This document shows positions 3,921-61,052 of a stretch of DNA of 64,000 nt, one piece after another. A model generated the notes under the pieces. That model saw only the letters and a program-made list of their open reading frames with translations, was not told the origin of the DNA and did no database searches. Every line of letters starts with the position of its first letter. Position 1 is the first letter of the stretch. The DNA is from an uncultured Bacteroidales bacterium (lineage in GTDB: Bacteria; Bacteroidota; Bacteroidia; Bacteroidales; VadinHA17). The position numbers and the translations under genes are program-made. The DNA lies in NCBI GenBank assembly GCA_963734885.1, contig CAVTIJ010000008.1, positions 246,952 through 310,951 of the forward strand, written 5' to 3'.

Positions 3921-4134
3921 AATATTGATTTTTAGAAATTTTCCGATGCAAATTAGTCAAAATAATCATTCGTAATATTTTGTGATTTACATTTTGTGCC
4001 CACAGGTAGATAAGGAACAGTCGCGACTGTTCCTTACACAACATTTGTTTGCTTTTCCGTTTTATACTACATGATAATAAATAAGGGATACTAGTTGATT
4101 AAATTTTTATAAAGAACTAATTTTAATTGTTTTT

Positions 4135-5403
4135 GTGCCGATCATTAATTTAAAAGAATTCAATATGAAACGAGAACAGTATATTCCATTTGATAAGGAA
4201 TTCTTATTGGAACAGCAAATTGCAGAATATGCTGCAGATAACAAGGAAGTAGAAGATTTCAAAAAGCTATTTGATATACTGGAACATTATTTTCACTACG
4301 AAGCCTTTAATCTTATCCGTAAATTAAAACAAAATTATGCCTCTTTCGATCCTGATTTAAGTCCTAAAGAAAGGGACGGATTCATAGGCAAAAGTGATTT
4401 TCCGATTTTTAAAGAGACCCTTCTTAAAGTTCTTGAGCGGGGCAATTTTTGTCGTGTTGATCAGGATACCCTGGATGAAGCCTTGAAAAATTCAGATCTT
4501 ATTGGATTAAAGCTTGCAATTGACTTTAATGATTTTAAAGATTATGGAATATATGTCCGGGGTCACCATAAAACCAGGGAAAAGGTCACCAGATTCTTTT
4601 TGTGGAAGAAAGAAATAGAGTTTGAGTACTATGACCGCGTAATGATTTACCTTAATTATAACGATGCAGACTACTTTAACGAAAAGAAGGTTCCTTTAAG
4701 TAAACTACCCTTTGATCCGGGGTGCATTGTATTAAAAATTTTCAAGCGGGTTCCAAAAAACGATCTCGAAACTATATTTCCAAATGCAGTTCCCAGGATG
4801 TCGGCAATAGATAAAATATTATTCTGGGTCCCTGGTGTCGGTGGCGGTATTTCATTATTGAGTACGAAAGTAGTTCCGGCATTGATTACAATGTATGCCG
4901 CATACAAATCAGGTGAGTCAATAAATCTTTTAAACAGTAAAACTGCACTTAACCAGGGCCTAATAGCGCTTGGAATATTGGGTGGTTATTTGTTCCGGCA
5001 ATACAACAGCTTTGTAAATAAGAAAATAAAATTTTCAAAGATGCTTTCCGACAGTCTTTACTTCAAAAATCTGGGTAATAACAGCGGGGCATTTTATTCA
5101 TTGTTAAACTCTTCGGAAGAAGAAGAGCTTAAAGAGACAATTTTGGCATATGCATTTTTAAATAGAAGCAAGAAGCCCCTGACAGCAGAAGAGCTCGATT
5201 CCCAAATTGAGGCATGGTTTAAGATAAGGCTGGATACTGACCTTGATTTTGATGTAGAAGACGCTTTATTTAAATTGAAAAACATTGGTCTTGGCATCGA
5301 GACTAATGGCAAATGGAAGGTTATTCCGTTAGAGAAGGCACTTGTTCTGGTAGATGAAGTATGGGATGGGATATTTGAGTATAATCAACCACATCCGGTT
5401 TGA
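4135..5403 (+). CDS. hypothetical membrane-associated protein (possibly DUF3754/TMEM143-like)
   Basis: 422-aa ORF with two central hydrophobic segments (WVPGVGGGISLLSTKVVPALI, GLIALGILGGYLF). The track start is GTG, and ATG at 4165 is an alternative start. Confidence 0.4.
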   Translation: MPIINLKEFNMKREQYIPFDKEFLLEQQIAEYAADNKEVEDFKKLFDILEHYFHYEAFNLIRKLKQNYASFDPDLSPKERDGFIGKSDFPIFKETLLKVLERGNFCRVDQDTLDEALKNSDLIGLKLAIDFNDFKDYGIYVRGHHKTREKVTRFFLWKKEIEFEYYDRVMIYLNYNDADYFNEKKVPLSKLPFDPGCIVLKIFKRVPKNDLETIFPNAVPRMSAIDKILFWVPGVGGGISLLSTKVVPALITMYAAYKSGESINLLNSKTALNQGLIALGILGGYLFRQYNSFVNKKIKFSKMLSDSLYFKNLGNNSGAFYSLLNSSEEEELKETILAYAFLNRSKKPLTAEELDSQIEAWFKIRLDTDLDFDVEDALFKLKNIGLGIETNGKWKVIPLEKALVLVDEVWDGIFEYNQPHPV

Positions 5404-5602: not shown

Positions 5603-5664
5603 CGGTGAGCGGTATGCGGTATGCGTTATCATCACCGCAAACCTCATACCGCAGACCGCAAGCC
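5603..5664. repeat. solo short hairpin of GCGGTATG / CATACCGC 8-mer words
   Basis: ggtgagcggtatgcggtatgcg ... ccgcaaacctcataccgcagaccgcaagcc. The word family matches the arms flanking the 43122-43479 four-helix-bundle pseudogene, but nothing lies in the loop. Confidence 0.6.
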
Positions 5665-5665
5665 G

Positions 5666-11661: not shown

Positions 11662-11767
11662 TTAACCACAAAGTACACAAAGTAGGCACAAAGTACACAA
11701 AGTAAATATCCTTATTTGGATCTTTGTGTCCTTTGTGTTACATCTTTGTGAACTCTGTGGTTAATGG
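11662..11767. repeat. ORF-less palindromic element, TTAACCACAAAG...CTGTGGTTAATGG
   Basis: The left arm ttaaccacaaagtacacaaagtaggcacaaagtacacaaagta and the right arm tctttgtgtcctttgtgttacatctttgtgaactctgtggttaa flank a 16-nt loop. It lies 31 nt downstream of the pruA stop. Confidence 0.75.
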
Positions 11768-21654: not shown

Positions 21655-21763
21655 ATTAACCGCAAAGAACGTAAAGGAGGCGCAAAGCGCAAAGCTAAAA
21701 CAATTATAACATTAAGTTCTTTGCGACCTTTGCGTAAATTCTTTGCGACCTTTGCGGTTAATG
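21655..21763. repeat. ORF-less palindromic element, CATTAACCGCAAAG...CTTTGCGGTTAATGG
   Basis: The arms are built from GCAAAG / CTTTGC words with a ~30-nt AT-rich centre. It lies 16 nt downstream of the NUDIX gene stop. Confidence 0.75.
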
Positions 21764-30240: not shown

Positions 30241-30384
30241 CTTCAGGGGAATTAGTTAAAGGTTAATCAGATTAGTGAAAACAATATACGAAAAAATGTC
30301 TAAGTATAATAGATGATAGGTGATGTGGAATAATACAAAGGACAAAACGTAAAGTACAGAGGTAATGAGTTATACATTTCCCGT

Positions 30385-30634
30385 CCTTCAAAAGGCTAAT
30401 CTTACATCATATTTTGGTAATCCCTGGGAGATCCTTCATCTTCCGCAAGATAAAAAAATTGTCATTTGAGCTCCATATACTTTATTGCGGAAATTGAAGG
30501 ATCCCCTTCTCTTAGTCAGCAATTCTCCTGCCTCGCTTTGGCGGGGGAAATTTTTTTATGCAGTATCTCCTTCGTCCCTAAAGTTAGGTTGGAGGCTATG
30601 CCCTTTTGGCAGTGTGCAGAAAGGGGAGTGGGGC
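30385..30634. repeat. diverged short-form copy of the 575-bp repeat unit
   Basis: ggctaatcttacatca...ccctgggagatccttcatcttccgcaagataaaaa...ttgcggaaattgaaggatccccttctct...tatgcagtatctcc...aagttaggttggaggctatgcc is collinear with the 45.3-47.4 kb unit. It lacks the ~177-nt segment holding hairpins H2 and H3. Confidence 0.7.
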
Positions 30635-31675: not shown

Positions 31676-31800
31676 CAAAACTTCCTTCCCCGATAAACCC
31701 CAAATTGCATTGTCATCCTGAATTTCACTGGTACGTAGCTTGCGGAATACCAGTGAAATGAAGGATCCCCTTCTCTTTTTAAGCAATTTTGTAAAAAGAT
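31676..31800. repeat. partial copy of the 575-bp repeat unit (right half of H2, H3, 3' strand of P1)
   Basis: cttccttccccgataaaccccaaattgcattgtcatcctgaatttcactggtacgtagcttgcggaataccagtgaaatgaaggatccccttctcttt aligns with unit positions equivalent to 46086-46180. Confidence 0.7.
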
Positions 31801-38624: not shown

Positions 38625-38774
38625 TGTATCAAATAGTTATTGTTTAAAAATTAGTAAAAAAAATTCCGACAAAGATAATCAAAATCCTGGCAATAAAAGA
38701 CGTAAGGGTCTAATGGCTTAGATTCTGATCTGGAACTCCCTGCCTCTCATGGTCCCATTAGTCGGGCCCCCCTG

Positions 38775-38799
38775 CCCCCCTAAAGGGGGAAGTTGATAT
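38775..38799. repeat. GGCCCCCCTGCCCCCCTAAAGGGGG motif, perfect inverted partner at 42434-42458
   Basis: Direct reading shows the reverse complement of 42433-42458 begins with the identical 25 nt. Confidence 0.8.
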
Positions 38800-38904
38800 G
38801 TTTATTAGGAATTTTGTAATATTTGTATAAATTGTCATTTAGAATTATATGAGCAATTTCCAGAGTATAATATGTTCTTATGGAGCAAATGCACCAGTGC
38901 TTTA

Positions 38905-39167
38905 AGAGGGCTGCAGCTTCATTTGGAAGATATGACTTTAGCCGAAAAGGTCCTTTGGAATAAACTGAATGGATGAAAAATCTTTAATGCTTAAATTTAC
39001 GAAAACAGCATCCTTCTGGATATTCATCGTTGATTTTATTGTCATGAATATAAACTTGTTTAGAAGTTGATGGAGATATTCACAACGAGATTGAAACAAA
39101 TGAAGACGACTTAGGAAGAACTGCTGAATTCTATGAGATAGATTTTCGTTTAAAAGTGATCAAGTAA
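38905..39167 (+). pseudogene. decayed DUF559 endonuclease gene
   Basis: Fragments in different frames: MTLAEKVLWNKLNG, ..FYCHEYKLV.. and DGDIHNEIETNEDDLGRTAEFYEIDFRLKVIK. They are collinear with the intact DUF559 at 8251-8649. Confidence 0.55.
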
Positions 39168-39301
39168 TACAACAAATAGATACTATTTAAAATTGATTCA
39201 AAGATTTAATTGATTGATTTAACGGACGATTACTGGATCTTAGCCCTTATCCTTAGCAGGGTGCAGTGACCAACAGGGCCTTATTATAAAACTATTGTAT
39301 T

Positions 39302-39996
39302 ATGAAAAAACTGGTCATTTTACCGGCGCCGGTATGAGTTCCGAGAGCGGAATAAAAACTTTCAGGGATTCAGGCGGATTATGGGAAGAATATGAAGTAT
39401 CGGAAGTAGCCACTCCAATGGCCTGGGCGAAAAACAGGGAACTGGTTCTCCGTTTCTATAATGAAAGGAGAAGACAGCTTGCAACGAGTAAACCCAATGA
39501 AGGGCATTTCGGTCTGGCCGCACTCGAGAAATATTTTGATGTTCACATAATTACACAGAATATTGATGATCTGCATGAAAGGGCTGGCAGCACAAAAATC
39601 GTCCATCTGCATGGTGAACTGACAAAAGCCCGAAGCTGCATTGATCCGTCTCTGATTTATGATATTGGATATAAGGATATCAAACCAGGAGATAATTGTG
39701 AAAAGGGGAGCCAGCTGCGTCCTCATATAGTCTGGTTTGGTGAAGAAGTGCCGATGATGGATGAGGCGGCGAATCTTACTGCAGATGCGGATGTATTTGT
39801 TGTGATAGGATCATCGTTGAATGTTTATCCGGCAGCAGGACTCATAGCATATGCACCTGCCAAAGCATCGCTGTGGCTCATTGATCCGAAGGAGGTTGTT
39901 ATTCCGATCAACAGGAAAGTTGAGGTGATAATGGAGAATGCATCGAAAGGGGTGGGGATACTGACAGAGCGACTATTATCTGACAAAATCAAATGA
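39302..39996 (+). CDS. cobB: NAD-dependent protein deacylase (Sir2 family), frame break within the first 10 codons
   Basis: GAGMSSESGIKTFR, QNIDDLHERAG and HG motifs. ATG at 39302 gives MKKLVIL, then the frame shifts at attttaccgg. Confidence 0.8.
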
Positions 39997-40322
39997 AAGG
40001 ATATACTTATATAATGGCCAATAAAAATAATTCTGTCCTTTACACAGGAGTTACTTCGGATTTAGAAAAACGTGTAATTCAACATAAAACAAAAAAGCAT
40101 CATAAAAGCTTCTCCGCTAAATACAATATCTGTAAACTTGTATATTATGAAGAACGTGAAACTATTGGGGAAGCTATAAAAAGAGAGAAACAGATAAAAG
40201 CGGGTTCCCGGAATAAAAAGATTGACCTTATTAATAGTATTAACCCGGAATGGAAGGATTTAAGCTTAATTCTGGACACGAACGGGGGATTGCTTCGCCC
40301 TCCTTCGTCGGGCTCGCAATGA
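39993..40322 (+). CDS. GIY-YIG nuclease family protein (COG2827-type)
   Basis: YTYIMANKNNSVLYTGVTSDLEKRVIQHK. The start overlaps the cobB stop (ATGA). The last ~12 codons are encoded by a palindromic repeat unit. Confidence 0.8.
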   Translation: MKGYTYIMANKNNSVLYTGVTSDLEKRVIQHKTKKHHKSFSAKYNICKLVYYEERETIGEAIKREKQIKAGSRNKKIDLINSINPEWKDLSLILDTNGGLLRPPSSGSQ

Positions 40323-40486
40323 CCGTTTTACTATTTGGAACTGTAACCTCCTTCGTCGGGCTCGCAATGACGGTTTTACTATTTGGCACTGTACCCTCCT
40401 AAGTCGGGCTCGCAATGACGCTGTACATTATTAGGTTAACTGTCATTCCGAGAATACCGCCAATTGGCGGAGACGAAGCAATCCCC
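40285..40486. repeat. repeat cluster: 48-bp tandem (about 2.5 copies) of CCTCCTTCGTCGGGCTCGCAATGAC units plus an inverted GTCATTCCGAG...GAAGCAATCCCC unit
   Basis: cctccttcg recurs at 40299 and 40347, and cctcctaag at 40395 (period 48). The inverted unit is at 40442-40486. Confidence 0.8.
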
Positions 40487-41543: not shown

Positions 41544-41569
41544 GTTATTTTATATTTTCTGACACGAGT

Positions 41570-41666
41570 GGGGGATTGCTTCGCCTTCCTTCGTCAGGCT
41601 CGCAATGACAATATACTTCATTAAAGTTCACGATCCTTGCGAGGAGCGAAGCGACGAAGCAATCTC
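41570..41666. repeat. inverted pair of GATTGCTTCG...CGCAATGAC / GCGAGGAGCGAAGCGACGAAGCAATC units
   Basis: ggggattgcttcgccttccttcgtcaggctcgcaatgac (41570-41609) and ccttgcgaggagcgaagcgacgaagcaatctc (41635-41666). Confidence 0.7.
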
Positions 41667-42380: not shown

Positions 42381-42458
42381 AGGGGAGAAAATACACGTAC
42401 TGTCCCGAATTTTAATTTGTACTGAGAATTTACCCCCCTTTAGGGGGGCAGGGGGGCC
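42346..42458. repeat. cluster of C-run/G-run hairpins (cctctcccgctaaagcggga, ctcccctaaaggggag, cccccctttagggggg)
   Basis: Read directly. The first two hairpins overlap the last codons and the stop of ribE. Confidence 0.75.
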
Positions 42459-42991: not shown

Positions 42992-43606
42992 CGGCATGCG
43001 GTGTGCGGTGTGCGGTCCGAGGCAAAAAACTAAACGGTGCGCAGGTTTCCGGTGTGAGGTACTTAACCGTACTCGCGGCGTGCGATACGCGGTAGAAGAA
43101 CTCAAAATTTATTTAGCTTATTTAAGAATTATTTAGTCTTGCTTTGATTAGGTTTGAAAGCATTGCCGATATCTTATCACATTCATCAACAAGTACATTT
43201 TTTGTATTTTCATCTATATAACCAATTTCATTTGCAATTATTAATTGAGTCATAAGCTCAGCTGTAGAACCTTTCGAAATGTAAAAGTGTCTTATAGCTA
43301 ATTTATCAGTTCCGAGCTCATCTCCTTCTGCAATATTACTTGCAATGCTTACAGAGGAACGTTAATTTGATCCTTTAGTCCAAAATCTTTTGAAAATTCA
43401 CTGGATCTGGTTAAACGATAGATTTTTACGGCAATTCTTTGGCGATTTGCCAAACGCGAAGTTTCTGAAAATTTCCCATAATGCAGCGGTTTTAGATTAG
43501 TAAATTTAGCACAAGGGTAAAGATAAGAATTTTGATATAATAAAAAACCGCGAACCGCACGCCGCAAACCGAACCCCGCTTACCGATACCGCACACCGCA
43601 CACCGC
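42992..43606. mobile_element. putative IVS-like cassette: inverted GCGGTGTG/CACACCGC 8-mer arms around a decayed four-helix-bundle gene
   Basis: There is a perfect 19-nt terminal inverted repeat: gcggtgtgcggtgtgcggt (42998-43016) and accgcacaccgcacaccgc (43588-43606). Confidence 0.45.
43122..43479 (-). pseudogene. four-helix-bundle protein (23S rRNA intervening-sequence protein family), two frame breaks
   Basis: The three pieces MGNFQKLRVWQIAKEL / AVKIYRLTRSSEFSKDFGLKDQI / SIASNIAEGDELGTDKLAIRHFYISKGSTAELMTQLIIA lie in three frames. Confidence 0.65.
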
Positions 43607-45158: not shown

Positions 45159-45285
45159 CGGTTATCCAACGATCAGGTTAGGTTAACGAGAATGCTAAGT
45201 AAATAAAAAATTCAGCAATCTCTACAAACATGACATAATTATCATGGATTTGGTTGCATAGATTTCTATTCCTTCCCTGGTTTTC

Positions 45286-47369
45286 CATTTCCCCTTTTTT
45301 TGGAGGCTTGTCTTACATCGTATTTATTAAAATTCAGGTAGTCCCTGGGAGATCCTTCATCTTCCGCAAGATAAAAATTGTCATTTACTCCATATATGTA
45401 TTTTGCGGAAGATTCAGGATGACAGGTTGTTATGGGATAATAATGGGGAAGGAAGCGGCGCCTTTTGTGCTAATATTTCTTTATTCAGAAAATTTGATTC
45501 AAAAGGCGCCGCTTCCTTTTCCTACAAGCCCCAAATTACATTGTCATCCTGAATTTCGCTGGTACGCAGCTTGCGGAGTACCAGTGAAATGAAGGATCCC
45601 CTTCTCTTTCTCAGAAATCCTGTAGATGTAAAAGGAGGGAAACTTTGTTATGCAGTTTCTCATTCATCCCCAAAGCTTAGGTTGACGGCTATGAGGAAGG
45701 GGGTGAGTTATGTAAGGCCAAAAGGAAGAGGGCCGGCCAAGCCAAATTCCCGATAACAAAGATGTGTATAAAGGGTAGTGTGGAGCAGAGAGGGGAAGGG
45801 GGCATAGCCATCAACCTACGGAGTTGAATAAAGTTTAAAGTATTGAAATTAAATCAGATACATTTCCCCTTTTTTTGGAGGCTTGTCTTACATCGTATTT
45901 ATTAAAATTCAGGTAGTCCCTGGGAGATCCTTCATCTTCCGCAAGATAAAAATTGTCATTTACTCCATATATGTATTTTGCGGAAGATTCAGGATGACAG
46001 GTTGTTATGGGATAATAATAGGGAAGGAAGCGGCGCCTTTTGTGCTAATATTTCTTTATTCAGAAGAATTGATTCAAAAGGCGCCGCTTCCTTTTCCTAC
46101 AAGCCCCAAATTACATTGTCATCCTGAATTTCGCTGGTACGCAGCTTGCGGAGTACCAGTGAAATGAAGGATCCCCTTCTCTTTCTCAGAAATCCTGTAG
46201 ATGTAAAAGGAGGGAAACTTTGTTATGCAGTTTCTCATTCATCCCCAAAGCTTAGGTTGACGGCTATGAGGAAGGGGGTGAGTTATGTAAGGCCAAAAGG
46301 AAGAGGGCCGGCCAGGCCAAATTCCCGATAACAAAGATGTGTATAAAGGGTAGTGTGGAGCAGAGAGGGGAAGGGGGCATAGCCATCAACCTACGGAGTT
46401 GAATAAAGTTTAAAGTATTGAAATTAAATCAGATACATTTCCCCTTTTTTTGGAGGCTTGTCTTACATCGTATTTATTAAAATTCAGGTAGTCCCTGGGA
46501 GATCCTTCATCTTCCGCAAGATAAAAATTGTCATTTACTCCATATATGTATTTTGCGGAAGATTCAGGATGACAGGTTGTTATGGGATAATAATGGGGAA
46601 GGAAGCGGCGCCTTTTGTGCTAATATTTCTTTATTCAGAAGAATTGATTCAAAAGGCGCCGCTTCCTTTTCCTACAAGCCCCAAATTACATTGTCATCCT
46701 GAATTTCGCTGGTACGCAGCTTGCGGAGTACCAGTGAAATGAAGGATCCCCTTCTCTTTCTCAGAAATCCTGTAGATGTAAAAGGAGGGAAACTTTGTTA
46801 TGCAGTTTCTCATTCATCCCCAAAGCTTAGGTTGACGGCTATGAGGAAGGGGGTGAGTTATGTAAGGCCAAAAGGAAGAGGGCCGGCCAAGCCAAATTCC
46901 CGATAACAAAGATGTGTATAAAGGGTAGTGTGGAGCAGAGAGGGGAAGGGGGCATAGCCATCAACCTACGGAGTTGAATAAAGTTTAAAGTATTGAAATT
47001 AAATCAGATACATTTCCCCTTTTTTTGGAGGCTTGTCTTACATCGTATTTATTAAAATTCAGGTAGTCCCTGGGAGATCCTTCATCTTCCGCAAGATAAA
47101 AATTGTCATTTACTCCATATATGTATTTTGCGAAAGATTCAGGATGACAGGTTGTTATGGGATAGTAATAGGGAAGGAAGCGGCGCCTTTTGTGCTAATA
47201 TTTCTTTATTCAGAAAATTTGATTCAAAAGGCGCCGCTTCCTTTTCCTACAAGCCCCAAATTACATTGTCATCCTGAATTTCGCTGGTACGCAGCTTGCG
47301 GAGTACCAGTGAAATGAAGGATCCCCTTCTCTTTCTCAGAAATCCTGTAGATGTAAAAGGAGGGAAACT
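45286..47369. repeat. tandem array, 575-bp unit x 3.6 copies
   Basis: Identical landmarks recur at 45308, 45883, 46458 and 47033. Homology starts at catttcccc (45286) and ends at agggaaact (47369). The copies differ by only a handful of substitutions. Confidence 0.95.
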
Positions 47370-47601
47370 ACGAAGTGAGCTGGATTAACCGACAAAAGGA
47401 GTGGAAATGTATAAGCCTAGAACCCAAACGTCACCCCCACATTCACCGTATTGTTCTTCCCGAAAAAATACTCCGGACTCCACCATGCATCACCTCTCAT
47501 ATTTGTCTTTATTCTTAAATAAAATTCAGTTATTTTCATGGCCTTTGAAAAACATTTCATATCTTGCGTTACATAATATATGTAACATAAAACATGTAAC
47601 A

Positions 47602-47825
47602 CGCCCTTCCGCCTTTCCGCCTTTCCGCCTTTCCGCCCTTACGCCTTTCCGCCCTTCCGCCTTTCCGCCTTTCCGCCCTTCCGCCTTTCCGCCTTTCCGC
47701 CCTTCCGCCTTTCCGCCCTTCCGCCTTTCCGCCCTTCCGCCTTTCCGCCCTTCCGCCTTTCCGCCCTTCCGCCTTTCCGCCCTTCCGCCTTTCCGCCCTT
47801 CCGCCTTTCCGCCTTTCCGCCTTTC
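47602..47825. repeat. 28 tandem 8-mers, CGCCYTTC
   Basis: Counted directly: 28 consecutive units with one variant (cgccctta). The array ends 64 nt upstream of the UpxY ATG (47890). Confidence 0.95.
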
Positions 47826-47889
47826 TTACCCCCTTACGCCAAAATAATTAAATAATGATTTATCTTTGTCCCCGTTTAAAAGGTTAAAA

Positions 47890-48438
47890 ATGTCTGAACC
47901 TGAAACCACATCTGAACAAGAACAAAATCTCAGCAGGAAAATTACTGAGGACAAATGGTATGCCATTTATACCCGTCCCCGGGCCGAGAAGCTTGTCTTT
48001 GCACGTCTTGAAGAGGAGAGCATTGAGACATTCCTGCCGTTGCAGAAGACCTTCAGGGTTTGGAGTGACAGGAAAAAGCTCGTGGAAAAACCGCTTCTTC
48101 CTTCGTACATATTTGTAAAGACAAACAAGAAAAATTTCCCGAAGGTATATAAGATCATAGGAGTAGTTAAGTTCGTCTCTTTTGAAGGGAAAGCCGTTTC
48201 AATACCTCAAAAACAGATAGATAATCTCAGGTTGTTAATCAACAGCAATGCTGAAATCGAAGTAAGTTCCGAGAAGTTCTCTGCGGGTGATAATGTTGAA
48301 GTTACTAATGGCGCTCTTGCGGGACTAACGGGTGAGTTAATAAGGATCGGCAGCAAAAACCGTGTTGTGGTCCGCATTGACCGGCTCGATCAGAATCTCA
48401 TACTCAAAATCCCGAAAGCCTTTCTCAAAAAAGTGTAA
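47890..48438 (+). CDS. UpxY-family transcription antiterminator (NusG paralogue)
   Basis: NGN domain KWYAIYTRPRAEK...PLLPSYIFV and KOW motif GDNVEVTNGALAGLTGELI. ATG at 47890 is preferred over TTG at 47866. Confidence 0.85.
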   Translation: MSEPETTSEQEQNLSRKITEDKWYAIYTRPRAEKLVFARLEEESIETFLPLQKTFRVWSDRKKLVEKPLLPSYIFVKTNKKNFPKVYKIIGVVKFVSFEGKAVSIPQKQIDNLRLLINSNAEIEVSSEKFSAGDNVEVTNGALAGLTGELIRIGSKNRVVVRIDRLDQNLILKIPKAFLKKV

Positions 48439-48440
48439 AG

Positions 48441-49056
48441 ACTGTCTTACGAATTTATTGTCTTGCGGTCTTGCAGTCTTGCGGTCCTGCAGTCATTTAT
48501 TTACCAGATTTCAGATACTTGGAAACGTCTTGCGGTCATGCGGTCTTGCAGTCCTTTATTTACCAGATTTCAAATATTTCATAAGTATACTTATTCTGTT
48601 TATCAGCGATTGGATTCTTTCTCTTCGATCAATTGCTGTTTCCGGAAGAACGTATTCTTGATCTTCGGCTATATAATACATACTTTTTACCTCTCCTGCA
48701 GAACCCTTTGAAATGTTGAGGAATTGTTTAAACTCTGAATCACTGTTTCTGCAGAAACCTTCAGCGATATTATTCATTGAAGATATTCCGGCTCTTGAAA
48801 TCTGATCTTTGAATGAAAAGTCACGGCATTTTCTCAGGTCTGAATAAATCAGATTAACAAGCTCTCTGGAAATCTTCCAGATCTCGAGATCTTCGAAATT
48901 TTTAATTGTTCCCATCTTAGCACGATTTAGATTATGGGAACTAAATTATTAAATTTTTTTAAATGCAAGACCGCAAGACTGCAAGACTGCAAGACCGCAT
49001 GACCGCAAGACTGCAAGACCGTAATACCCACCGCAAGACCGCAAGACCGCAAGACT
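48441..49056. mobile_element. putative IVS-like cassette: inverted GTCTTGCR/YGCAAGAC 8-mer arms around an intact four-helix-bundle gene
   Basis: The left arms (48459-48490 and 48527-48552) are the reverse complement of the right array (48966-49056). The best pairing is 21 nt (48466-48486 with 49001-49021). The cassette starts 3 nt after the UpxY stop. Confidence 0.45.
48556..48915 (-). CDS. four-helix-bundle protein (23S rRNA intervening-sequence protein family, TIGR02436-like)
   Basis: FEDLEIWKISRELVNLIY...FSFKDQISRAGISSMNNIAEGF...KGSAGEV is the family signature. Confidence 0.8.
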   Translation of the reverse strand: MGTIKNFEDLEIWKISRELVNLIYSDLRKCRDFSFKDQISRAGISSMNNIAEGFCRNSDSEFKQFLNISKGSAGEVKSMYYIAEDQEYVLPETAIDRRERIQSLINRISILMKYLKSGK

Positions 49057-49115
49057 AATATCGCTATTCGGAAAAATATATTTAATTTTGCCGGTAACTC
49101 TTAAGTTAATTACTC

Positions 49116-49526
49116 TTGAAAAGTCTAATTAGTATATCAGATATTGCGTTGGCCATTGAGGAAAAATTTCCCGAAATACCGTTTGCCCATATTTTTGGTT
49201 CATCGGTCGATGGAGTCGTAAATGATGGATCTGATATTGACATTGCGATATGGTATAATGGAACAGATCCTTTTATAAAAGTAAAAGTGTTGGAAACCAT
49301 TGAGCCCATAGTCAAAAATATAGCGACAGACATTGTAAATATTTGCAACGCAGACCCGTTGCTGGCTCATGAAGCTCTTGCCGGCATTGTTTTGTTTGTA
49401 CGCGAAGGAAAGAAATCACATTATGCTTCTTTTTATTCAAAAATTGCAGCCGAATACGAGGATAGAATATATTGGATTCAGAAACAATTAGAATACCGGG
49501 GCTATGAGGTACAATGGAATCATTGA
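49116..49526 (+). CDS. mntA: MntA-type nucleotidyltransferase antitoxin
   Basis: FGSSVDGVVNDGSDIDIAIW (the GSx10-DxD minimal NTase motif). It overlaps the downstream DUF86 gene by 23 nt. Confidence 0.75.
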   Translation: MKSLISISDIALAIEEKFPEIPFAHIFGSSVDGVVNDGSDIDIAIWYNGTDPFIKVKVLETIEPIVKNIATDIVNICNADPLLAHEALAGIVLFVREGKKSHYASFYSKIAAEYEDRIYWIQKQLEYRGYEVQWNH

Positions 49527-49908
49527 GGCAAAACTCAGGACAATTGAGGAGAAGATACTTGAAATAGAAAGTTGGCAGATTCTCTCTTATCAACAATTAC
49601 AAACAAATTCGATGTTGCGAAACGCAACTGAACGTGCTCTTCAGGTAGCGATTGAAGCAATCGTTGACATTTGTGAACATATACTTGCAATTGAAGGCAT
49701 TTCAGCGCCCGACACATCGGCAAATGTGGTAAAAAAGATTATTGATATGGGTATTATCACAAATAATCCTGAATATCTTGAAATGATTCGTTTTCGAAAT
49801 TTCATTGTACACCGGTACGAAAAAATTGATTTGGAGATAATTTACTCCATTGTGTCAAAAAAACTACCTGTTTTCCGGAAGTTTATTCACGAAATAAGAA
49901 ATAGTTAA
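49504..49908 (+). CDS. hepT: HepT-type (DUF86) RNase toxin
   Basis: RNFIVHRY (Rx4HxY HEPN motif) near the C-terminus, with the size and pairing typical of HepT. Confidence 0.75.
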   Translation: MRYNGIIEAKLRTIEEKILEIESWQILSYQQLQTNSMLRNATERALQVAIEAIVDICEHILAIEGISAPDTSANVVKKIIDMGIITNNPEYLEMIRFRNFIVHRYEKIDLEIIYSIVSKKLPVFRKFIHEIRNS

Positions 49909-49928
49909 GCCTTATCCTTTTTTCCCGT

Positions 49929-49973
49929 AAGACCGCAAGACTGCAAGACCGCAAGACCGCACGACCGCAGGAC
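49929..49973. repeat. GCAAGACY 8-mer array, same orientation as 48966-49056
   Basis: aagaccgcaagactgcaagaccgcaagaccgcacgaccgcaggac. Confidence 0.8.
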
Positions 49974-51986: not shown

Positions 51987-52016
51987 AAGGCCAAAGTTAA
52001 TTTATTTTCCACTAAT

Positions 52017-52644
52017 GGTGCAGGGTGCAAGGTGCATGGTGCAGGGTGATTTTCTCAAAGGTGCAAGATGCATGGTGCAGGGTAAATTTTCAAAAAGGTG
52101 CAAGGTGCAGGATGCATGGTGTAGGGTATTTTCATAAAAGGTGCAAGGTGCAGGATGCATGGGTGCAGGGGTGAATTTTTACGTCCTCCAATTATTTTCT
52201 ACATAATCAATATAGGAGTTTATTTTTCTTCCAAGCGTTTCATACTCAGTTGAAAGAGAACTAAAGTCTAATATTTCAGGGTATAAGACAATTAACATTT
52301 CCAATTGACTGAGTGCTTCATCACAGGAAGAGTGGGAATAAACCAGGAATTTTATGTAATCTGCTTTATATCGGCGACGACCATAACCCTCTGTGATTTG
52401 ATCTTTAACACTCTTAGAGGATCTTCTTACCTGACTTCCTTGTTCAAAAAGTTCAAATTTGGGCAATTTAAGAGATGCCTTATGTACCCGGACAGCAAGA
52501 TCAAAAGAAAGCTTGTAGATTTCCAAATCTCTATAACTACTCATAATAAGCACGATGCGAGTCGAGTACCGAAGATAAGAATAATAAAAGTAATATCCAA
52601 TATGCACCTTGCACCTCGCACCCTGCACCCCGCACCCTGCACCA
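52017..52644. mobile_element. putative IVS-like cassette: inverted GGTGCARG/CYTGCACC 8-mer arms around an intact four-helix-bundle gene
   Basis: The left arm (52017-52172, four blocks of 8-mer run plus an AT-rich tail) is inverted relative to the right arm (52604-52644). Confidence 0.45.
52179..52544 (-). CDS. four-helix-bundle protein (23S rRNA intervening-sequence protein family)
   Basis: MSSYRDLEIYKLSFDLAVRVHK...FELFEQGSQVRRSSKSVKDQITEGY...YSHSSCDEA. The track's longer start (52628) merely translates the repeat arm. Confidence 0.75.
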   Translation of the reverse strand: MSSYRDLEIYKLSFDLAVRVHKASLKLPKFELFEQGSQVRRSSKSVKDQITEGYGRRRYKADYIKFLVYSHSSCDEALSQLEMLIVLYPEILDFSSLSTEYETLGRKINSYIDYVENNWRT

Positions 52645-59504: not shown

Positions 59505-60975
59505 ACTGATAAGATTAAATTCGATTATAGTGAAAAATTGGCGTATGGCTTTATTTTGCCTGCTTCTCCTGAACTTTGCCCTGAGGCTCTTTATCTACGG
59601 CCATACGACTCTTTTTAGTTTTTCTGATTACAAGCTATATTTAGCCGGAGTGGAAAAAATTCATGATGGAGAAAGCATAAAGATACTTAGCGGCAATTTT
59701 CTTTTTACAATATCATATATTGGATATTTTGCCAAGTATGTTTTGGGGAGCTTAAATTTCTTTTTTGTCTTCAATTGTTTGCTGGGACCTTAACAACTTA
59801 TTTTGTATCCTCATTTATAATAAGTTTGTCCGGAAATCCATTAGCAGGTATAGTTACAGCTGTGATTCTTACTTTTTACACTGAGTTTATGGTTTTTTCT
59901 TCAGTATTCTATACCCCTGTAATCTCTCTCTTTCTTCTTATAATAATAGTCTGGCTTTTGTTCAGTTACTTTAAATCATTAATAAATCTGTCCTTTTTCC
60001 TTATCCTGACCGGAATTCTTATAGTTTTTTTAATAACATTTCTATTTAAACCGGAGCTTGTTTTTTTTCCTGTTTTTTTACTGCTGCTGACTTTATTGTT
60101 GTACAGGAAACAAAGAACCATTTTCATACGGAATATTGTTCTGGTCTTTATATTTATTGCTGGGAATCCTGATTAATAAAGGCGACTGGAATATATAAGA
60201 GATCAGATGATTCAGTTATTTCAAATGATTTTGTATTTTTTGGTCATACCGATTACGGAGGTGCAGGAGGCGAGGGTAGTTTTGTAAATCCTGAAAATAA
60301 AATCAGGTACGATGAAGCATTGGCGGTTTATTGCAAAGAACATGGATTAACAAACCCAACAGTAGAGGACCGTAATCGATTTCAAATCCAGGAAATAAAA
60401 AAATTTATTACCCATCATCCCCTGAAATGGATAAAACTTCAGTTCACAAAATTCTTCAGAACATTTGGTGTTGTTCCCGAAACTACAAGCTTCAAAGTAC
60501 TCTATACTGGATTTTTTAAAGGTCATCTCTGGCTAACATCATTCATTGTAGTTGCACCGGTTGCTATAATAATAATCCTATTTATTTTATTCTTTAACTT
60601 ACAAGCAATAAGAGATTTGATCACCCACCTCGCACCGCGCACCTCGCACCCCGCACCGCGTACCGTGCACCCCTTTCTTTGCAGTCTACTTGCTGCTGTT
60701 CGTCTACTACCTGATCGCCTCGCATCTTCTTCGGCCAGTACCAGGAACGCTATCGCCTGCCACTCATGGTTGTCTTTATTATTCCTGCTTTAGGCTTTTT
60801 TATAGCATCATTTAACAAAGCTCAATTTTTAAAAAGGAGTTCCCTGGTAATAAAAGGTGCAGTTATAATATTATTTCTGGCAATCTGGACTTTCCAGGCT
60901 GAGAACGCAATATCCAACAAAGAACGACTAAATAATGCCCTGGAATCAGTCAAACAAATAAAACCTAACCCTTGA
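59491..60975 (+). pseudogene. polytopic GT-C (ArnT/PMT-like) membrane glycosyltransferase candidate, with frame breaks and an internal 8-mer array
   Basis: Multiple TM segments across ORFs 59491-59793, 59775-60176, 60320-60793 and 60766-60975. The conserved-looking ..FGQYQERYRLPLMVV.. is in a different frame from the upstream part. Confidence 0.4.
60625..60673. repeat. CGCACC-type 8-mer array inside the GT-C reading frame
   Basis: ccacctcgcaccgcgcacctcgcaccccgcaccgcgtaccgtgcaccc. It translates as APRTSHPAPRTVHP within ORF 60320-60793. Confidence 0.75.
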
Positions 60976-60987
60976 CTACCATCAGCC

Positions 60988-61052
60988 CTCACCTCGCACC
61001 GCACCTCTGCACCCTGCACCCTGCACCTTGCACCCTGCACCCTGCACCTCAC
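60988..61052. repeat. CTGCACC-type 8-mer array, same orientation as 60625-60673 and 52604-52644
   Basis: ctcacctcgcaccgcacctctgcaccctgcaccctgcaccttgcaccctgcaccctgcacctcac. It begins 13 nt after the GT-C stop. Confidence 0.8.

Follow-up and report, generated by a model that had tools for sequence, protein, structure and literature searches.

Genes for four-helix-bundle (4HB) proteins of the PF05635 family normally travel together with co-evolving, periodic and mutually complementary arms, in Bacteroidota, Cyanobacteriota, Verrucomicrobiota, Planctomycetota and other phyla. Among 73 homologues sampled (Bacteroidota, Verrucomicrobiota, Planctomycetota and other phyla), complementary arrays of period 7, 8 or 9 flank about 70% of the genes, compared with 4-6% of neighbouring ORFs, and an independent metagenome sample gave complementary arms for 79% versus 11%. 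A survey of whether inverted arrays are the rule around such genes, as called for in an earlier note on this DNA, thus comes out in favour of that note's reading. The gene and its two arms behave as a single piece of DNA that is inherited, inverted, replaced or lost together. The explanation placed first, which stands about evenly balanced between right and wrong, is that of a selfish cassette of the rRNA intervening sequence (IVS) type, whose arms, as judged from their sequence, would pair in read-through RNA to give a duplex of the kind cut by RNase III.

The window, that is, the whole stretch of 64,000 nucleotides analysed, contains three such cassettes. Cassette 1 carries the gene W1 (48556..48915), which encodes 119 amino acids with matches to PF05635 and TIGR02436 and, like the arms and spacer around it, is assigned to the minus strand. 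Its upstream arm (48965..49055), detected both by Tandem Repeats Finder (TRF) and as inverted-repeat pairs I1-I17, consists on the gene strand of 11.9 units of (GGTCTTGC)n and is separated from the ATG by a spacer of 49 nt (48916..48964). On the other side, the inner downstream arm (48527..48553, 3.4 units) lies two bases from the stop codon, followed by a remnant of the gene end with a short linker (48495..48526) and by the outer downstream arm (48460..48494), which reads (GTCTTGCR) x4.4 on the plus strand and begins 22 nt past the stop codon of a UpxY-family gene. TRF assigns period 8 to all three arrays. The perfect pairing of 21 nt reported earlier between 48466-48486 and 49001-49021 is exact on recheck, and a longer perfect complement of 27 nt joins 48527-48553 to 48985-49011, with further pairs of 32 nt (94% complementary) and 63 nt (75% complementary). 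The words are largely confined to this locus, as 5 of the 7 GTCTTGCR and 12 of the 13 YGCAAGAC occurrences in the window fall within 48460-49950. The RNA of 48441-49060 (minus strand) is predicted to fold at -211 kcal/mol, compared with -141 +/- 5 in shuffled sequences (z = -13), and the minimum-free-energy fold displays a two-tier terminal stem built from both arms. In the spacer, a -7-like box of the Bacteroidetes type, TAATTTAG (48941-48948), is kept in W1-like cassettes and is the putative promoter of W1, and a conserved leader, ...AATCGTGCTAAG, lies immediately 5′ of the ATG in these cassettes. The segment 48495-48520 repeats 48554-48579 and is thus a duplicated copy of the last ~26 nt of the W1 gene, forming part of the direct repeat D2 (48468-48520 and 48527-48579, 89%); the earlier note mentions neither this remnant nor the third GCAAGAC array described below. 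Similar 3′ remnants occur at loci L010 and L032; when 5′ remnants were sought for comparison, only the 3′ ones of W1, L010 and L032 proved convincing, too few for a test.

To our knowledge, no function has been assigned to PF05635, a large family whose sole characterised relative is Avd; at least 815 clusters were recovered in a first search and at least 599 stretches, 586 of them confirmed, in a genome scan. W1 matches PF05635 (23S_rRNA_IVP) with E=3e-26 and 92.1 bits (cut-off 33.8 bits) and TIGR02436 ("four helix bundle protein") with E=2e-25 and 89 bits (cut-off 24 bits), and no rRNA, tRNA or Rfam family is found within the 64-kb window, so that the earlier description of an IVS-family gene within a long stem outside rRNA stands. 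The product matches PF05635 only and has no HUH/Y1 transposase motif. By sequence, W1 also matches PDB 2GSC (E=3e-10), and its AlphaFold2 model (pLDDT 89) consists of four helices with Foldseek TM values of 0.87 to 2GSC, 0.80 to 2RLD and 0.77 to Avd (4DWL). As modelled, the fold of W1 is therefore like that of XCC0516, BT_0352 and Avd, and homology to the pentameric 2GSC and 4DWL suggests assembly as a homopentamer. The family motif GxxRxxxSxxxNxxE (quoted in PMC3936711) is represented in W1 by R41-S45-N49-E52, with G53, and its first glycine is replaced by Q38 in the W1 clade. A protein 99% identical to W1 (P0001) is found on contig L081, the exact W1 protein is not on record, and no W1-like gene was found in viral contigs.

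Cassette 2 contains the second 4HB gene, W2 (52179..52562, minus strand; 127 amino acids from the ATG at 52562), whose product is 25% identical to W1 and scores 77.5 bits with PF05635 and 84 bits with TIGR02436. Its upstream arm (52603..52643, minus strand) reads TGCACCC x5.9 on the plus strand, and its downstream arm region (52017..52178, minus strand; TRF periods 7 and 43) is a higher-order repeat of four copies, each made of about four GGTGCAG-type units and a 12-15-nt spacer. The third 4HB gene (43122..43479, minus strand) lies between a downstream arm of TGCGGTG x2.9 (42997..43016, minus strand) and an upstream arm (43547..43606, minus strand) of ACCGCAC-type units, x7.7 on the plus strand. 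Two 1-nt deletions frameshift this gene in the window; it is intact in L081, where the W2 ortholog in turn has a deletion of 10 nt. Three cassettes in 10 kb was thus the right count (at 43, 48 and 52 kb), although one of the three genes is broken, and the words do differ among them as claimed, except that those of cassettes 2 and 3 are not 8-mers but have period 7.

Repeats of this kind also occur without a 4HB gene. The window holds a gene-less inverted pair, or "empty stem", at 5609..5665 (GCGGTAT / ACCGCAA), the word of which resembles that of cassette 3, and another at 21680..21756 (GCGCAAAG / CTTTGCGAC), neither assigned to a strand. Gene-less arrays with cassette-like words are present at 5609-5665, 49925-49973 and 60626-61050, and short-period arrays away from 4HB genes at 11667-11704, 47602-47825 and 60626-61050. 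The latter would suit the idea that the arrays are chance neighbours, namely ordinary simple repeats, terminators or assembly artefacts. That idea is refuted by array enrichment in both independent samples (12- to 17-fold at about 70% versus 4-6%) and by the comparison of own with swapped arms given below, since the complementarity is cassette-specific; moreover, assemblies from numerous studies, built from long or short reads, show this layout, as do the complete Riemerella and Nostoc plasmid records, and a chance origin is scarcely conceivable. Some arrays seed spurious ORFs, e.g., 47401-47847 and 52002-52160. A coding-repeat interpretation was rejected, as the ORFs through the arrays lack homologues and vary with unit number, and a CRISPR-like one was rejected because the period is 7-9 and there are no spacers.

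Across the survey, the commonest distance between the two arrays of an inverted pair is 400-500 nt, and a 4HB ORF lies within 59 of 93 such pairs. The downstream array usually starts 0-10 nt past the stop codon, the period is equal on both sides, and array length has its mode at 4-5 units (median 4.6-4.9 units, 37-40 nt). When each arm was scored against its own partner, the median was 17.5, whereas exchanging arms among cassettes lowered it to 8 (p=6e-29); complementarity is confined to the partners of one cassette. Arm compatibility falls with protein identity, from 79% at identities of at least 85% to 0-1% below 55%, which supports the suspected co-diversification of arms and protein. Each subfamily has its word, GTCNTGCR for W1-like and GGTGCWGG for W2-like cassettes. 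The genes flanking the cassettes are protein-coding, and a conserved 23S motif was absent from all of the 81 loci examined first (L081 and the 80 from the genome survey).

These features would be accommodated by a unit consisting of a dispensable PF05635 4HB gene between two arms, each a tandem array of about five units of 7-9 nt, or some 40 nt, where the arms of one cassette stay mutually complementary and the word is free to drift between cassettes. The cassettes reside in intergenic DNA, mostly in co-directional strings of genes whose orientation they share, and would be read through by transcription; the G-rich 5′ arm and C-rich 3′ arm of the read-through RNA would then form a duplex of 25-50 bp, a substrate of the RNase III type, by which the cassette would be looped out or excised. 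The host transcript would stay functional, whether it is an operon mRNA or, if the landing site is a 23S helix, an rRNA. The genomic setting is consistent with read-through, as the genes on either side are co-directional for 48 of 70 cassettes, 38 of which share the orientation of these neighbours, suggesting that host transcription passes through them. Among cultured bacteria, a Riemerella anatipestifer record (the layout is also seen in a Nostoc record, pNsp_c of Nostoc sp. ATCC 53789) has its cassette between a SufA-family gene and sufB, and these three genes (SufA-family, 4HB and SufB), which have consecutive locus tags, all appear as iron-induced in the table of a published RNA-seq study (PMC5609570).

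Excision or looping out is modelled on the behaviour of rRNA IVSs, such as those of Leptospira and Coxiella burnetii, which the cassettes resemble in having an S23p/PF05635 protein in the loop, in size (~430-760 nt for IVSs, ~520-620 nt for cassettes), in terminal inverted repeats with a stem of at least 25 bp (28 bp in Coxiella; PMC4990558), in an ORF that is dispensable and decaying, and in the sporadic distribution expected of a horizontally moving element. The Coxiella IVS is 428 nt long, with a 28-bp terminal stem around the S23p ORF, and RNase III cuts within that stem (PMC4990558). In contrast to IVSs, the cassettes lie in intergenic DNA of protein-coding operons rather than in rRNA, tandem 7-9-nt arms are known here for the cassettes only, and those of Bacteroidales have an apparent promoter of their own; pairing of the arms in vivo and their cleavage by RNase III are presumed by extension. 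Several observations count against the RNA duplex. About 30% of the homologues have no arms, and the units have fixed cores (GTC, TGC) with variable positions 4 and 8/9, which a plain helix does not require. Arm mismatches on the coding strand number 87 G:U versus 103 A:C (and 191 others); the G:U preference that would mark selection for a helix in the sense-strand RNA is thus missing, although the ungapped alignment of multi-register arrays makes for a weak test. Finally, the -7-like box of Bacteroidales cassettes lies between the upstream arm and the ATG, so that the cassette's own transcript would lack the 5′ arm.

The fixed cores count in favour of an alternative in which each cassette's 4HB pentamer binds periodically along the arrays, and word and protein co-evolve by recognition. 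By analogy with the TRAP and HutP rings that read spaced triplets, about five units would serve one pentamer, with one core (GUC/GAC) per subunit, and binding would regulate or package the RNA or DNA of the cassette. In agreement with this, the predicted fold is that of the pentameric XCC0516, BT_0352 and Avd, the last of which, a pentamer with positive charge, holds structured RNA within the diversity-generating retroelement (DGR) ribonucleoprotein (bioRxiv 10.1101/2023.10.23.563531), and the modal array length is 4-5 units. Distant clades have a GTC core in the 5′ arm in common, conservation extends to a degenerate unit, AATCGTGC, immediately 5′ of the ATG, and the word follows the protein subfamily. 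However, tracking of word and protein is predicted equally well by co-descent, and proteins of 65-75% identity often have incompatible words, so that any specificity would have to change very fast. Array pairs, moreover, are not exclusive to 4HB genes: the unrelated GxxExxY nuclease genes are flanked by arms of similar kind and gene-less pairs are common (also in PMC2700814), indicating that the arrays need no 4HB gene in cis. Recognition by the pentamer is considered unlikely.

Evidence from relatives also bears on a role of the arms at the level of DNA, which is doubtful but has to be taken seriously. The arms would then serve an element that moves or inverts, as its terminal inverted repeats or as substrates for recombination, with complementarity as a by-product of conversion; recombination between inverted arms would flip the cassette, and recombination between direct copies would capture or excise neighbouring modules. 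L082 has cassette 1 in the opposite orientation, whereas the UpxY and OMP genes on its two sides are colinear with those of the window; the two breakpoints fall within the arms. Next to it in the window, an MntA-HepT toxin-antitoxin module (49057..49924, plus strand; genes 49116-49526 and 49504-49908) lies inside the array, and beyond the module is a third GCAAGAC array (49925..49973, minus strand), in direct orientation to 48965-49055; this array is the counterpart of the right cassette arm in L082, from which the module is missing. Different cassettes can occupy one site, as L086 and L093 have a W2-like 4HB gene with GGTGCTRG arms at the UpxY-downstream position of cassette 1. A rare unit variant, GTCATGCG, is identical in both arms of cassette 1 (pair I5, 48527-48553/48985-49011), the G:U bias is absent, and in L011, L028 and L063 gene-less pairs with the cassette word are found at a distance of 1-2 kb from cassettes. 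In Geobacter metallireducens, IS110-family elements insert beside such array pairs (PMC2700814). Against this role, no recombinase or transposase was found in or beside the cassettes in gene tables and profile matches, and a single inversion over ~10-20% divergence is what ordinary homologous recombination between inverted repeats of 30-90 bp is expected to yield, so that no dedicated machinery is needed. The strand asymmetry of the arms and the co-orientation with neighbouring genes are also left unexplained by it.

Other comparisons among relatives show the arms as variable boundaries. In contig L081, which is 94-98% identical to the window, the upstream array of cassette 1 is made of fewer units, i.e., arm copy number varies among near-identical strains, and homology of the window to L001-L003 stops inside arrays. 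Contigs of several relatives stop just beyond the adjacent gene. The earlier note suggested looking for empty sites; no clean one was found among the relatives compared, where the UpxY-downstream site holds the inverted cassette, another cassette, a remnant, a contig end or nothing visible. At the tRNA-synthetase/SIR2 site, L081 has an extra 4HB cassette and the window a DUF559 pseudogene, which is a replacement and not an empty site.

The strand asymmetry is itself the basis of a further proposal, in which the arms act as transcriptional insulators. Transcripts leaving the cassette on either side would read a C-rich, G-poor, rut-like array on which Rho could load, and incoming transcripts would carry both arms and hide this tract in a duplex, such that cassette transcription is ended and host read-through spared. 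On the coding strand, G exceeds C in 46 of the 52 upstream arrays with non-zero skew and C exceeds G in 44 of 57 downstream arrays, with 32% C and 14% G in the 3′ arm outside the W1 clade; the promoter-like box between the arms and the tolerance of cassettes within operons would also fit. Nevertheless, the case is purely compositional, units of the W1 type (GACCGCAA) are not G-poor, and the purine-rich 5′ arms of non-Bacteroidota may merely provide ribosome-binding sequence, and insulation by Rho is regarded as improbable.

Several known systems share part of this architecture. Geobacter metallireducens has pairs of 3-5 tandem units of 7-9 nt whose two members lie on opposite strands and a variable distance apart (Aklujkar et al. 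2009, PMC2700814). They likewise occupy intergenic sites inside operons (nifD-nifK, proB-proA; PMC2700814), and one consensus among them, GTTGCTYN, equals the arm word used by 4HB cassettes of L090 and L108. Unlike the cassettes, these pairs were described as gene-less and read as IHF/HU "global regulator" sites, and a PF05635/IVS link is absent from that report (PMC2700814). REP/REPIN-RAYT systems are similar in having a gene between inverted copies of a short structured repeat and repeat families each tied to one gene lineage, and their gene-less copies dispersed in intergenic regions of operons may have a counterpart in the gene-less arrays noted above. However, the 4HB protein is a helical bundle lacking the HUH/Y1 motif, the cassette repeats are tandem arrays and not single imperfect palindromes, and one genome holds many paralogous cassettes that differ in their words; L078 has, separately, a true RAYT-like gene flanked by REP-like sequences of its own. 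Integron cassettes (attC) are comparable in their small, often promoter-less or self-contained ORFs within structured imperfect inverted repeats and in modules parted by direct copies of a boundary element, as with MntA-HepT, and differ in that the present cassettes have no integrase or attI, an arm on both sides of each gene, and periodic arms. With DGRs, the cassettes share the homologous fold of Avd (Foldseek TM 0.77 to 4DWL), a protein that binds RNA stem-loops, and the motif of a long-range RNA duplex, which in DGRs brackets a functional RNA from upstream and downstream of the template. In the cassettes the arms bracket the 4HB gene itself; no reverse-transcriptase family was found within ~10 kb on either side in the near-identical contig L081, and no template/variable repeat was seen.

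A more far-reaching possibility, quite unlikely on present sequence evidence, is that the 4HB pentamer reads its own periodic arrays in a sequence-specific manner and that protein and arrays together make up a self-propagating element of a new kind. The cassettes with a gene would then be autonomous, and the gene-less pairs in operons and the ORF-less rRNA IVSs would be their non-autonomous derivatives. As the 4HB protein is homologous to Avd, a cofactor of DGR reverse transcriptase, spread might proceed via an RNA intermediate with reverse transcriptase supplied in trans, which would explain the tandem-repeat tails and the 5′-truncated copies consisting of a 3′ remnant plus array (W1, W2, L010, L032).

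No link between PF05635 genes and flanking arrays was found in open-access full text, and an earlier description is possible. The presence of the cassette outside rRNA in several phyla suggests that rRNA may be one landing place of a wider element, and the rRNA IVSs would become a special case of a general intergenic cassette. The paired octamer sites of Geobacter thereby gain a likely identity, and the questions raised here become testable in cultured species, for example at the sufA-4HB-sufB locus of Riemerella anatipestifer. The rRNA IVSs have been called "selfish elements" since about 1990, and we know of no origin or means of movement for them; if protein and arrays do form a self-propagating element, these sequences, unexplained for some 30 years, would acquire both an origin and a mechanism of mobility.

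The 119-aa product of the ORF at 48556-48915 (-) matches PF05635 (23S_rRNA_IVP; E=3e-26) and TIGR02436 ('four helix bundle protein', 4HB; E=2e-25) and resembles by sequence the pentameric XCC0516 (PDB 2GSC; E=3e-10). Its AlphaFold2 model has four helices (pLDDT 89) and superposes on 2GSC with a TM of 0.87, on BT_0352 (2RLD) with 0.80 and on Avd (4DWL), a protein of diversity-generating retroelements, with 0.77. Tandem Repeats Finder places period-8 arrays at 48460-48494, 48527-48553 and 48965-49055; the 21-nt perfect pairing described in the earlier note is exact, the longest perfect pair is 27 nt (48527-48553 with 48985-49011), and another spans 32 nt at 94% complementarity. On the gene strand, an upstream arm, (GGTCTTGC)n, is followed by a 49-nt spacer and the 4HB gene, a downstream arm starting two bases past the stop codon, a 26-nt copy of the gene's 3' end with a linker, and a second downstream arm. 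The arm words are essentially limited to this locus within the window, and the 620-nt unit is predicted to fold, as RNA, with its arms paired in a terminal stem of two tiers (-211 kcal/mol, z=-13 against shuffles). The window is free of rRNA, tRNA and Rfam families, in agreement with the claim that no rRNA lies nearby. A third GCAAGAC array (49925-49973) lies on the far side of an MntA-HepT toxin-antitoxin pair, this type VII module (49057-49924) being located between two direct copies of the cassette 1 array.

The gene-in-stem layout that had been claimed for two more sites is present at both, cassette 2 (52179-52562, -) having GGTGCAG-type arms and a higher-order repeat, in which array plus spacer occurs four times, comparable to that of cassette 1, and cassette 3 (43122-43479, -) having TGCGGTG/ACCGCAC arms. 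The near-identical contig L081 (94-98% identical) carries all three. The cassette 3 gene is frameshifted in the window by two 1-nt deletions (43364 and 43435), one of which falls in a T run and is possibly a sequencing error, and is intact in L081 at 98% identity; the cassette 2 gene is broken in L081 by a 10-nt deletion (equivalent to window 52211-52220). Cassette genes decay, and the breaks differ between these two near-identical strains. Where the locus encodes polysaccharide export, the C-rich arrays CACCKCG and GCACCCT (60626-60671 and 60990-61050) resemble the cassette 2 arms in their words and lie in direct orientation about 320 nt apart, with no 4HB gene between them.

A profile scan with the 4HB protein over one genome per species yielded at least 586 confirmed places, 80 of which were kept, spanning Bacteroidales, Flavobacteriia, Verrucomicrobiota, Planctomycetota, Desulfobacterota and other groups. 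Inverted arrays prove to be the rule around these genes, as the earlier note had proposed to check: an arm score of at least 14 (best ungapped complementarity between 250-nt flanks, although arrays can pair in several registers) is reached by 70% of 73 4HB genes versus 5.7% of 229 other ORFs at the same loci, or 4.1% when 4HB paralogues hidden among these are left out. A second sample, chosen via a neighboring UpxY gene rather than via the 4HB gene, gives arms at 11/14 4HB genes versus 11% of 154 controls. Conversely searched, 645 kb of sequence contains 93 inverted array pairs with a spacing peak at 400-500 nt, 59 of which enclose a 4HB ORF. The layout is also found in two PLSDB plasmid records, of Riemerella anatipestifer, where it sits inside the suf operon between a SufA-family gene and sufB, and of Nostoc sp. 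ATCC 53789 (pNsp_c; arms GGGAAAA/TTTTCCC, 31 nt at 94%). Array periods are 7 (27 arrays), 8 (63) or 9 (29), with a single period-10 exception, and the two arrays of a cassette nearly always share one period; median size is 4.6-4.9 units (37-40 nt). The stop codon and the downstream array are usually 0-10 nt apart; the gap from the upstream array to the ATG is about 30-70 nt in Bacteroidales and, in most others, about 0-40 nt. The 4HB protein, a putative pentamer, might bind such periodic arrays, by analogy with TRAP or HutP reading spaced triplets, a reading that we regard as unlikely.

Gene and arms form one unit. Arm complementarity is confined to the own partner (median 17.5, versus 8 when arms are swapped between loci; p=6e-29), and the proposed co-diversification of arms and protein is borne out, with arms compatible between cassettes in 79% of cases at protein identities of at least 85%, 57% at 75-85%, 26% at 65-75% and 0-1% below 55%. 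Among relatives of the cassette 1 protein the unit is G-T-C-N-T-G-C-R(-R), in which cores are fixed and other positions free. Chance or artefact as the source of the arrays is excluded by the flank surveys and the own-versus-swapped scores. Between the window and L001-L003, homology is restricted to the gene and arms and stops within the arrays. L081 has fewer units than the window in the upstream arm of cassette 1, so the arrays are hypervariable. In L082, a relative with a 90% identical UpxY gene, the cassette 1 counterpart (106/119 residues identical) lies in inverted orientation between UpxY and outer-membrane-protein genes that are themselves colinear, and both breakpoints fall within the arms; the MntA-HepT module is missing there, as if it had inserted into the array. 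Directly past the UpxY stop codon, the same site holds a relative of the cassette 2 protein with GGTGCTRG arms in L086 and L093, and retains only an array and a 3' remnant in L084 and L085. Arms acting at the DNA level, through inversion, capture of modules and conversion, would accommodate these rearrangements; this is a tentative reading to which we give roughly one chance in four.

A 575-bp unit, with no Rfam or Pfam match, occurs in four tandem copies (45254-47400) upstream of the UpxY leader and in three copies in L081, with related pieces at 30369-30600 and 31681-31793; the ORFs within it are probably spurious. Upstream of the gene for a UpxY-family antiterminator (47866-48438), its leader contains 28 CGCCTTTC units in tandem, all oriented alike (47602-47825) and with no inverted partner nearby, which produce a spurious ORF (47401-47847); alignment to L081 fragments across this array, suggesting that unit number differs. 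At 41548-41658 lies a palindrome about 110 nt long (GGGGGATTGCTTCGCC...GGCTCGCAATGAC / ...GAGCGAAGCGACGAAGCAATC) that is absent from L081, and its family recurs as a 48-nt tandem repeat (40298-40420) just past a GIY-YIG gene (39993-40322) and after the UpxY gene in other relatives (L083-L085); it may be a MITE tied to the GIY-YIG gene. A degenerate DUF559/Vsr-like endonuclease pseudogene (~38830-39170) adjoins the G/C-rich hairpin word GCCCCCCTGCCCCCCTAAAGGGGG (38764-38790), whose G-rich word has an inverted copy at 42433-42458; in L081 the intergenic site of the pseudogene is occupied by a fourth 4HB cassette, whose arms are GGGACTAA. In metagenome contigs L104, L106, L107 and L118, UpxY-family genes (~4001-4552) have inverted repeats on either side, with 58-68 matched nt, not tandem arrays and visibly reaching further, and the whole gene may be invertible.

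Arms of this kind are also found with other cargo. Genes of about 125 aa for GxxExxY nucleases (TIGR04256, PD-(D/E)XK-like; L033:1515-1898, L042:2475-2855, L046:6088-6462, L059:2340-2714) are flanked by inverted 8-9-nt words, including CACAGATT and CACGAATT, and are a second small-gene family with arms like those of 4HB cassettes. Gene-less array pairs of matching word are found near cassettes. In an operon with ABC transporter and HlyD-like genes (L011:1834-6373), every intergenic space is occupied by a GTCGTGCAA-word element, namely two 4HB cassettes that are close relatives and a hairpin without a gene, which suggests local spread. The nearest precedent for the arrays is Geobacter metallireducens, with 24+21+8 pairs of tandem octa-/heptanucleotide units on opposite strands inside operons, interpreted as IHF/HU 'global regulator' sites, with IS110-family insertions beside them (PMC2700814); these pairs are gene-less. 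GTTGCTYN, one of their consensus words, is the arm word of 4HB cassettes in L090 and L108. PF05635-type genes have been reported scattered within cas loci and in CPR-bacteria rRNA insertions, and searches of open-access full text found no paper tying them to flanking arrays. While the 4HB family and the IVS concept are already known, a general cassette of gene plus periodic arms outside rRNA appears, judged on this literature, to be undescribed.

The IVS-like architecture claimed earlier is supported. In the 428-nt Coxiella IVS a terminal stem of 28 bp encloses a decaying S23p ORF, and RNase III cleaves inside that stem (PMC4990558). Protein family, size, terminal stem and dispensable ORF are shared with the window cassettes, whereas these lie in operon intergenic DNA rather than in rRNA and have periodic arms. 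Co-directional genes bracket 48 of 70 cassettes, and in 38 of the 48 the cassette points the same way as its neighbors. A Riemerella RNA-seq table gives three consecutive locus tags, for a SufA-family gene, the 4HB gene and SufB, as iron-induced (PMC5609570). This context, the suf operon site and the shared induction indicate that host transcription very probably reads through cassettes, which would place both arms on one RNA. In most Bacteroidales cassettes a TAnnTTTA/G box, a putative promoter, precedes the ATG by 29-36 nt, and in a few it is at -48/-49; it always falls between the arms, so RNA initiated by the cassette would have the 3' arm only. Composition on the coding strand is skewed: in the 5' arm G exceeds C in 46 arrays and C exceeds G in 6, and in the 3' arm C exceeds G in 44 arrays and G exceeds C in 13; C-rich, outward-reading arrays could provide Rho-type insulation, which fits this skew and which we consider very unlikely. 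G:U is not favored among the mismatches of the arms (87 G:U, 103 A:C, 191 other) in ungapped alignments of these multi-register arrays. The DNA-level, protein-binding and Rho readings may coexist with the best-supported one, that of an IVS-type selfish cassette, whose chances we put at about even. In read-through RNA its two arms would pair into an RNase III-type duplex that would loop out or excise the cassette, making the insertion harmless.
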